Shown here: in pieces, positions 34,488 to 36,050 of the stretch
How the letters are laid out: each line of letters starts with the position of its first letter
Numbering within the stretch: position 1 is the stretch's first letter
Origin: Escherichia phage EP02SG
Length of the DNA: 64,000 bases
Sequence record: PQ301181
Strand: one strand, 5' to 3'
Position numbers and translations under genes: made by a program
Notes under the pieces: model-generated
Told to the model about the DNA's origin: nothing
Databases searched by the model: none
The model's input: the letters and a program-made list of their open reading frames with translations, nothing else

Positions 34488-35058
34488 AAAAGTTTCGGAT
34501 TTGTTCCCAATTCAGAGAACGAAGATTATTACGAGAGTACTGAATTACTTCAATACCGGCTTGTTTTAGAATGTCTGCCCAATTTTCAGGAGATCGATCG
34601 TATAATTCTGCGTATACAACCTTTTTAATACCTGACTGCGTAATAGCTTTAGTGCAATCAGGACATGGAGAAAGCGTAGTATATAACGTAGCACCTTCAA
34701 TAGAATTACCTTTACGAGCTGCAAACAAAATTGCATTCAATTCTGCATGGATTTCATTATTAGCAGACCATGCACTATGAGCGGCCCGATGTTCTTTAGC
34801 CAAAACAAAATTATCTGCCCGTCCAAATGCTGTAGTGCCTTCTTTATGTCCAGCAACGATGACCGGGCTTGGTTTATTCTTCAACCAACCATTTTCGGAT
34901 GCATGTTCACAGCAGTTAACGCCACCTGCGGGTGAGCCATTATATCCAGTAGAGATAATGCGTCCATCTTTTTCAATGACGGCACCAACTTTCCATGAAC
35001 AACATTTTGATTCTTGAGAAATCAAATAAGCAATTTGAAGATATGTGCTAGCTTTCAT
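34477..35058 (-). CDS. cd: dCMP deaminase (Cd)
   Basis: 193-aa ORF, same length as T4 Cd; zinc-deaminase motifs HAELNAI and SPCPDC. Confidence 0.9.
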   Translation of the reverse strand: MKASTYLQIAYLISQESKCCSWKVGAVIEKDGRIISTGYNGSPAGGVNCCEHASENGWLKNKPSPVIVAGHKEGTTAFGRADNFVLAKEHRAAHSAWSANNEIHAELNAILFAARKGNSIEGATLYTTLSPCPDCTKAITQSGIKKVVYAELYDRSPENWADILKQAGIEVIQYSRNNLRSLNWEQIRNFCGE

Positions 35059-36050
35059 TATTGAACCTTATTAATATAAGTTAACAGCTCTTTAGTTTGT
35101 TCCCAACTGATGCACGCATCGGTAACGGAAACGCCATAGGACATATTATCAGAAATTTTTTGATTTCCTTCATGTAGGAATGATTCTATCATAATTCCTT
35201 TGACTAAATCATTAGCTGCTAAATTTTTACCAATACCAATTTGATTGCTATAATACCCATCAGCGTTTGCATGGCTACAGTCAACCATTACATAATGATT
35301 CAGACCTAATGCACTTGCTTTGTTAGAAGCTTCTTGAATATCAGAAGAATGATAGTTCGGGCCGTTAGTCCCGCCACGCAATACGATATGCGTATTCTGA
35401 TTACCTTCAGCTTCAACAATGCCTACAGTACCATCGACGTCCATACCCATATACCGATGAGGCCAGGCGGCACTATACATCGCGTCTGTAGCTACTTTAA
35501 TAGAACCATTGGTTGCGTTCTTGAAGCCTACGCACATCGGTAGACCTGAAGCAATTTCACGATGTGTCTGACTTTCAGTCGTACGGGCGCCAATAGCAAC
35601 CCATGAGAAAATACCAGAAAGATACTTAATCGTGAATGGGTCTAATACTTCAGTTGCTAATGGAAGTCCCATACGTAGAAGTTTACGACACAATGTTCGT
35701 GCAACTATAAGACCGTGGTTCATATCAAAACTTCCGTCAAGATATGGATCATTTACAAGACCTTTCCAACCTACGGTAGTTCGAGGCTTTTCAAAATAAA
35801 CGCGCATCACTAACAGAACATTAGGAAGACGAGTTTGAAGTTCAGCCAGACGTTTGCCGTATTCAACAGCAGCAATAGGGTCATGAATTGAACAAGGACC
35901 TACAACAATAAGTTTGCGTGGGTCTTCACCGTTCATAATCGAATTAACTTGTTCGCGATGAGAAGCCACTTGTGATGCGTAAGCTTCCGACAAAGGAATA
36001 ATCTCAGCCAGTTCTTTTGGAGAAATAAGTTTTCTGATGACAGGTAACAT
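35058..36050 (-). CDS. 3-deoxy-D-arabino-heptulosonate 7-phosphate (DAHP) synthase, class I (AroG/AroF/AroH-like)
   Basis: 330-aa ORF with [53 protein letters not shown]; colinear with E. coli AroG as recalled; 1-nt junction with cd. Confidence 0.85.
   Translation of the reverse strand: [330 protein letters not shown]

Follow-up and report, generated by a model that had tools for sequence, protein, structure and literature searches.

The window analyzed here, a 64,000-nucleotide stretch of Escherichia phage EP02SG (sequence record PQ301181), carries on its minus strand at 35058..36050 an open reading frame (ORF) of 330 amino acids (aa). Its sequence leaves us with little doubt that it encodes a type I-alpha, AroF-like DAHP (3-deoxy-D-arabinoheptulosonate 7-phosphate) synthase. 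Phage genes of this kind are already known and widely annotated. The one point that is likely to be new concerns the feedback-inhibition site of the enzyme, whose remodeling across the whole phage clade we did not find described in the literature.

The ORF has exactly the extent that an earlier note on this DNA had given it, and it adjoins cd, with pseT nearby, as that note had also claimed. Its ATG at 36050 is the first start codon past the upstream stop, so the protein cannot be extended at its N terminus. A Shine-Dalgarno sequence, AAGGA, can be read at 36056..36060 (minus strand), 5 nt before the ATG. At the other end, the stop codon overlaps the start codon of cd in the pentamer TAATG (35060-35056), which would couple the translation of cd (dCMP deaminase; 34477..35058, minus strand; Pfam dCMP_cyt_deam_1, E = 1.5e-26) to that of the DAHP synthase gene.

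Enzyme class and active site

The protein matches Pfam family PF00793 (DAHP_synth_1) with E = 2.1e-74 and 250.3 bits, against a gathering cutoff of 25.5, and the alignment pairs residues 36-323 with profile positions 8-269 of 270. It also passes the NCBIfam aroFGH equivalog TIGR00034 (426.4 bits; cutoff 173.2) and scores 453.8 bits with the subfamily model PRK12755 (cutoff 343). The class I-alpha assignment made in the earlier note therefore stands. The same note had described the protein as AroG-like, and this part does not: the score with the AroG-specific, Phe-sensitive equivalog NF006723 (362.5 bits) lies under the cutoff of 568, as does that with the AroH-specific, Trp-sensitive equivalog NF009396 (384.3 bits; cutoff 463). 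The top structure in the PDB is E. coli AroF (6agm, E = 1.2e-104), with AroG behind it (E = 1.5e-91), and identity declines from 51% with AroF through 47-48% with AroG to 44% with AroH. By these measures the phage protein is nearer AroF than AroG.

Every signature motif that had been listed for the ORF, LRGG and DCSHANA included, is found in it. The metal ligands C53, H260, E289 and D311 (AroG Cys61, His268, Glu302 and Asp326) are intact and are kept in 130 of 130 aligned homologs. Residues for phosphoenolpyruvate (PEP) and erythrose-4-phosphate (E4P) are likewise in place: R83, K88-P-R-T91, G154-A-R156, K177 and R225 correspond to AroG R92, K97-P-R-T100, G163-A-R165, K186 and R234. The PEP-binding residues and the KPRT loop, too, are shared by all 130 homologs. 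Every phage copy has kept the full set of 10 catalytic, PEP or E4P residues (C53, H260, E289, D311, R83, K88, R90, R156, K177 and R225). The enzyme is predicted to be catalytically competent, condensing PEP and E4P to DAHP. An identity as 3-deoxy-D-manno-octulosonate 8-phosphate (KDO8P) synthase, KdsA, can be rejected, since the aroFGH equivalog is passed, no KdsA model appears among the NCBIfam matches at E <= 0.01, and the KPRT motif is kept (KPRTT, not KANRS-type). None of the sequence-level results that the note had named as fatal to its assignment, namely a missing DAHP_synth_1 match, a better match to KdsA or the loss of catalytic residues, was obtained.

The feedback-inhibition site

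The N terminus of the window enzyme is 7-9 residues shorter than those of its E. coli counterparts. Ten residues precede the conserved Pro (P11 here), compared with 18 in AroG, 19 in AroF and 17 in AroH. A deficit of about 8 residues relative to AroG had been proposed before, and it is no artifact of the start codon. All phage-clade proteins have 8-12 residues in front of this Pro, whereas the 98 cellular homologs with which they were compared, a top-scoring set and not an unbiased sample, have at least 16. The missing stretch is where AroG has D6 and D7 and AroF has N8. The beta6a/6b hairpin segment is present, at residues ~200-212.

Residue switches were counted between 29 non-identical phage-clade proteins and the 98 cellular homologs, a switch being a position at which the phage clade shares one residue with few or no exceptions and at least 90% of the cellular enzymes have a different one. 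Only five positions qualify. P171 (codon 35538..35540, minus strand; AroG S180, AroF S181) occurs throughout the phage clade, in 29 of 29 proteins, at a position where 98% of the cellular ones have Ser. Y200 (AroG position 209) replaces a Phe found in 98% of cellular enzymes, A214 (position 223) a Thr found in 100%, and K/R142 (position 151) a Gln found in 99%. Finally, I141 (position 150) is invariant or nearly so in the phages, where 92% of cellular enzymes have Pro. The last two belong to the inhibitor-pocket loop D137-K142 (the LDPFTIK block; 35624..35641, minus strand), the remodeled equivalent of AroG D146-Q151.

In AroG, the substitutions P150L, S180F and F209A/S confer feedback resistance, and Q151 and S180 (AroF Q152 and S181) touch the main chain of the inhibitor (PMC9529685). 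The same paper provides a list of 10 AroG positions that give feedback resistance or are involved in Phe inhibition, and this list includes four of the five switch positions (hypergeometric P = 2e-6). In AroFcg, Q159A and S188F each cost the enzyme its sensitivity to 50 uM Tyr. The pocket blocks ATEVLDP, LDPFTIKYL and REIASGLPM do not vary between phage lineages whose overall identity is just 57-77%; variation among the phages is seen in the hairpin and in what is left of the N terminus, and the pocket loop varies among cellular isozymes. Together, these alignments show a putative allosteric site that is remodeled across the whole phage clade. Because the phages have lost the N-terminal stretch that closes over the inhibitor and carry substitutions where its main chain is held, we think it somewhat more probable that the phage enzyme would be insensitive to Phe, Tyr and Trp than that it would respond to them. 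The earlier suggestion that the enzyme may be deregulated, which had been drawn from the short N terminus, is strengthened by the clade-wide substitutions at feedback-resistance positions.

Genomic slot, ancestry and expression

The window belongs to a Mosigvirus of the JS09/HX01 type, and its positions 33000-39000 are 99.3% identical to Shigella phage SSE1. By tblastn, the DAHP synthase is found in 212 phage records, all with at least 80% coverage; identity reaches at least 95% in 139 of the 212 and 100% in two, ST0 and vB_VIPECOMC06. Most of these records annotate it as phospho-2-dehydro-3-deoxyheptonate aldolase, DAHP synthase, aroF or AroG. Its residues 1-330 also align with profile positions 8-337 of 341 of PHROG 5045 (E 1.5e-181), which is named phospho-2-dehydro-3-deoxyheptonate aldolase and placed in the category "moron, auxiliary metabolic gene and host takeover". 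The question that the earlier note had left to others, whether the gene was already described in T4-like phages, can thus be answered with yes. In print, ORF64 of phiC120 receives a passing mention in a genome paper (PMC8022965), and the copy of Klebsiella phage KLB31, a Kanagawavirus, is treated as an auxiliary metabolic gene (PMC11845039).

In T4, the corresponding interval runs cd, cd.1, cd.2, early promoter, cd.3-cd.5, pseT. It holds only cd.1-cd.5, in agreement with the earlier remark that T4 has only small cd.x ORFs here, and the DAHP synthase gene of the window stands at the position of cd.1. Both the neighbors and this comparison with T4 bear out the placement of the gene in the cd-pseT early region. 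The order is recurrent: cd.2, the DAHP synthase gene, an optional cd.1-like ORF or homing endonuclease, and cd. This slot is common to seven Straboviridae genera, namely Mosigvirus, Kanagawavirus (CIP9, PEi20), Kagamiyamavirus (EcS1), Winklervirus (X20), Marfavirus (Potts1), Gualtarvirus (PSTRCR_121) and Bragavirus (SdyM_006), and to one metagenomic T4-like contig.

Database searches separate the phage-type proteins (at least 56% identity, 319-343 aa) from cellular homologs (at most 55% identity, 341-388 aa), which come from unrelated phyla; the best of the latter, at 50-55% identity, are from Pontiella, Planctomycetota and gammaproteobacterial AroF. In a neighbor-joining tree built on Kimura distances, 32 phage-type sequences come together as a single clade in 60 of 60 bootstraps, and the tree resolves no sister group or donor lineage for it. 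GC content at third codon positions (GC3) is 0.29 in the DAHP synthase gene and 0.14-0.33 in neighboring phage genes, compared with 0.50-0.57 in E. coli aroF, aroG and aroH (aroF 0.50). These values, together with the synteny in seven genera, agree with the earlier argument that a phage-like composition reflects long residence. The ratio of nonsynonymous to synonymous substitution (dN/dS) between genera is 0.15-0.19, a value that is approximate for the most distant pairs, whose dS is saturated. The gene is thus shown to be under purifying selection. Because the shared slot, the single clade, the phage-like GC3 and the low dN/dS occur together, the data indicate one ancient acquisition by a T-even ancestor, followed by vertical descent under purifying selection. 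A recent capture from a host can be rejected, as the cellular homologs are only 50-55% identical and scattered over phyla, and the codon composition is ameliorated.

Two further sets of sequences extend the range of phage DAHP synthases. The ENA metagenome contig L015 encodes at 2517-3515 a divergent member of the phage clade (protein P0022; 57% identity), with an intermediate pocket (Y, P, K ... P), a 12-residue N terminus and a different context, not beside cd. This protein could represent an earlier step in the remodeling of the pocket or a transfer into another phage lineage. Two unannotated "Bacteriophage sp." records from human feces, MT835504 and MT838377, encode DAHP-synthase-like proteins of ~35% identity, so it may be that such enzymes were gained independently by phages outside the T-even group.

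The gene is not present in all members of the genus. In RB69, also a Mosigvirus, cd.2 is followed directly by cd. A segment of ~1.1 kb (~35062..36155), comprising the DAHP synthase gene and a 41-aa ORF, is absent there, and the flanks on both sides of this clean gap are 96-98% identical between the window and RB69 by blastn. At the segment ends lie imperfect 14-nt direct repeats on the minus strand, TAATGAGAGCTATC (36173-36160) and TAATGAAAGCTAGC (35060-35047), identical at 12 of 14 positions. Both contain the motif TAATGA(A/G)AGCTA, that is, the stop-start overlap, which suggests that the segment was gained or lost by recombination at this short homology. The upstream repeat resembles the cd start, as if it were a decayed second copy of it. 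Uninterrupted cd.2-cd junctions occur in ~11 close Mosigvirus records, RB69 included, versus 139 with the gene. The DAHP synthase gene is thus dispensable.

The gene is probably expressed early, in one transcript with cd.2 and cd from a T4-type early promoter, since the promoter region is homologous to that of T4 and no minus-strand terminator lies between the promoter-like site and the gene. This site, found by consensus scan and homology at 36436..36464 (minus strand) between cd.3 and cd.2, consists of GTTTACA, a 17-nt spacer and TACTAT. The promoter annotated between cd.2 and cd.3 of T4 reads GGTTTAC, 17 nt, TA(c/t)TAT, and the cd.3-cd.2 intergenic region can be aligned almost base for base with both T4 and RB69. 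In the consensus scan itself, sites were no more numerous than in shuffled sequence, so that conservation is what supports the T4-homologous site.

The first gene past this promoter is a cd.2 homolog (DUF7320; 36171..36407, minus strand), recognized by Pfam PF24005 (E = 1.5e-35) and by synteny with T4 and RB69. The 41-aa ORF between it and the DAHP synthase gene (PHROG 15876; 36059..36184, minus strand), which lies in the segment missing from RB69, overlaps the DAHP synthase ribosome-binding site with its stop codon; it is called hypothetical in SSE1 and is unannotated in HX01. Further neighbors are the gp31 co-chaperonin, pseT (37147..38046) and rnlA. More broadly, the annotation of the closest relative sets the DAHP synthase gene within an early cluster for nucleotide metabolism (cd, td, frd, nrdAB), and it shows no other gene of the shikimate or aromatic pathways, pabA/B included, within ~20 kb on either side. 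Two other intervals of the region differ among the phages. Downstream of gp31 and rIII, the gp30.x region contains an ORF of ~204-214 aa (PHROG 17531, E 7e-145; 31379-32023, minus strand) at the place for which RB69 has a much shorter annotated gp30.6 (282 nt), and this may be another variable accessory slot. The pseT/pseT.1 interval (38043-38533, minus strand) holds two ORFs of 63 aa (PHROG 8683) and 99 aa (PHROG 2364), which correspond to RB69ORF230c and 231c and lack a T4 counterpart in that interval.

Proposed role in infection and comparison with known enzymes

In E. coli, repression and feedback inhibition of AroG, AroF and AroH make the DAHP synthase step the main point of control over influx into the shikimate pathway, and the other enzymes of the common pathway are largely constitutive. 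This arrangement is the basis for the use of feedback-resistant aroG alleles in metabolic engineering. On the simplest reading, the phage DAHP synthase would no longer bind aromatic amino acids and would escape feedback by Phe, Tyr and Trp. Once the phage has shut off host transcription, this enzyme would hold open the committed, normally rate-controlling step of the pathway, a task for which one unregulated early enzyme would suffice, and the constitutive downstream enzymes of the host could continue to deliver chorismate along with aromatic amino acids to be built into phage proteins. With moderate confidence we favor this complete reading, an early, feedback-insensitive DAHP synthase that would open the shikimate pathway during infection. 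On the physiological purpose taken by itself, a flow of carbon to chorismate and aromatic amino acids, we are evenly divided.

Several points weigh against this proposal. Full-text literature searches turned up annotation-level mentions of phage copies and no enzymological or genetic study of any of them. The cellular enzymes that define the residue switches were chosen for their high scores. T4 and the ~11 close Mosigvirus records with an uninterrupted junction, RB69 among them, do well without the gene, so any benefit is conditional. AroFcg Q159A and S188F are unstable or weakly active, which means that substitutions at these sites are not simply neutral. Parts of the pocket are retained, including D137 (AroG D146), P138 (AroF P148), G202 and the beta6a/6b hairpin, and some ligand could therefore still bind; a pocket block that has stayed invariant instead of decaying also fits a pocket that is still in use.

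These last observations lead to the strongest alternative, in which the phage enzyme is an ordinary extra isozyme that is still feedback-regulated and would do no more than raise DAHP synthase capacity in the infected cell, the N-terminal and pocket changes having only shifted its affinity for, or choice of, inhibitor. The retained scaffold, with its AroF-type Gly at position 202, and the strong constraint on the pocket block are what such an isozyme would be expected to show. However, no phage copy has kept the equivalents of Q151 and S180, the two conserved polar residues that touch the main chain of the inhibitor, and all of them lack the N-terminal segment. Since single changes at sites of the Q151 or S180 type weaken or abolish inhibition in AroG and AroFcg, we regard continued regulation of this kind as unlikely.

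Less likely still is a second alternative, in which the remodeled pocket (F139, I141, K142, P171, Y200, A214 and the truncated N terminus) would be a sensor re-tuned to some other metabolite relevant to infection. The invariance of LDPFTIKYL and REIASGLPM at 57-77% overall identity, in a loop that varies among cellular isozymes, speaks against a site that was merely abandoned. The Gln has given way to a charged Lys or Arg and not to a random residue, and the neighboring gene product, Cd, is itself annotated as allosterically controlled by hydroxymethyl-dCTP and dCTP. If this were true, phage DAHP synthases would form a distinct regulatory subclass that places the entry of carbon into the shikimate pathway under phage control. 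Yet the invariance is explained equally well by a locked active conformation or by packing at the dimer interface. In addition, two other parts of the site, the hairpin and the N terminus, are variable in the phages.

The remaining explanations fare worse. The enzyme might act as a metabolic sink for PEP, E4P or both, or might supply a chorismate-derived cofactor, such as folate for the synthesis of hydroxymethyl-dCMP and dTMP. Its place in a nucleotide-metabolism cluster, with no other shikimate gene within ~20 kb, would fit such roles. This argument is purely contextual, however, and no supporting gene of the pabA/B type is nearby. Folates are recycled cofactors, and with E4P being drained, the non-oxidative pentose phosphate pathway would yield less pentose, so we consider these roles improbable. 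A nonfunctional passenger, or what is left of a captured host gene in decay, would agree with the dispensability of the gene and its absence from T4, RB69 and ~10 other Mosigvirus records, but it is refuted by a dN/dS of 0.15-0.19, by intact copies in 212 records and by conserved catalytic residues; an ameliorated composition, a good ribosome-binding site and translational coupling also speak against it. Finally, arabinosyl-hydroxymethylcytosine (ara-hmC) has been demonstrated in the DNA of the Mosigvirus RB69, and KDO8P synthase shares the Pfam family, but the making of an arabinose donor is excluded because RB69, the very phage of that demonstration, is without the gene, which is not implicated in the ara-hmC paper either. 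A KDO8P-synthase-like use of arabinose-5-phosphate is effectively excluded given the passed aroFGH equivalog, the lack of a KdsA match and the kept KPRT motif.

Natural pairs of Mosigvirus with and without the gene (this phage versus RB69, mar005P1 and moha) differ by a precise 1.1-kb indel. They provide clean material for the question of why the shikimate pathway is needed by a lytic phage, and they make the function of the gene easy to test.

It is useful to compare the window enzyme with its known counterparts. Its family is the Straboviridae family of PHROG 5045, with the same genomic slot and with ST0, HX01, JS09, Shf125875, SSE1, PEi20, CIP9, EcS1, X20, phiC120 ORF64 and KLB31 among its members, and no feature distinguishes the window copy from these. 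KdsA shares PF00793 and the PEP-aldol chemistry, whereas the phage enzyme has the KPRT motif, a Cys/His/Glu/Asp metal site and a full-length alignment with AroF, AroG and AroH. AroG shares the fold family and the active site. The Tyr-sensitive AroF (6AGL/6AGM) comes closest, with 51% identity over its full length, the same metal ligands and the same PEP and E4P residues, and its Pro148 and Gly212 recur in the phage enzyme. The phage enzyme differs from AroF in having 9 fewer N-terminal residues, in short deletions near AroF 290-294 and 311-313, in a shorter C terminus and in the replacement of P151, Q152, S181 and F210 by I, K, P and Y. It is naturally substituted at the positions altered in engineered feedback-resistant aroG alleles (P150L, S180F, F209A/S and the Q151 variants). 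The phage residues are not the engineered ones, and a like effect is a prediction. The phage clade looks like a natural, long-tested version of the feedback-resistant DAHP synthases made by engineering, and it is a candidate source of enzymes for the production of aromatic compounds.

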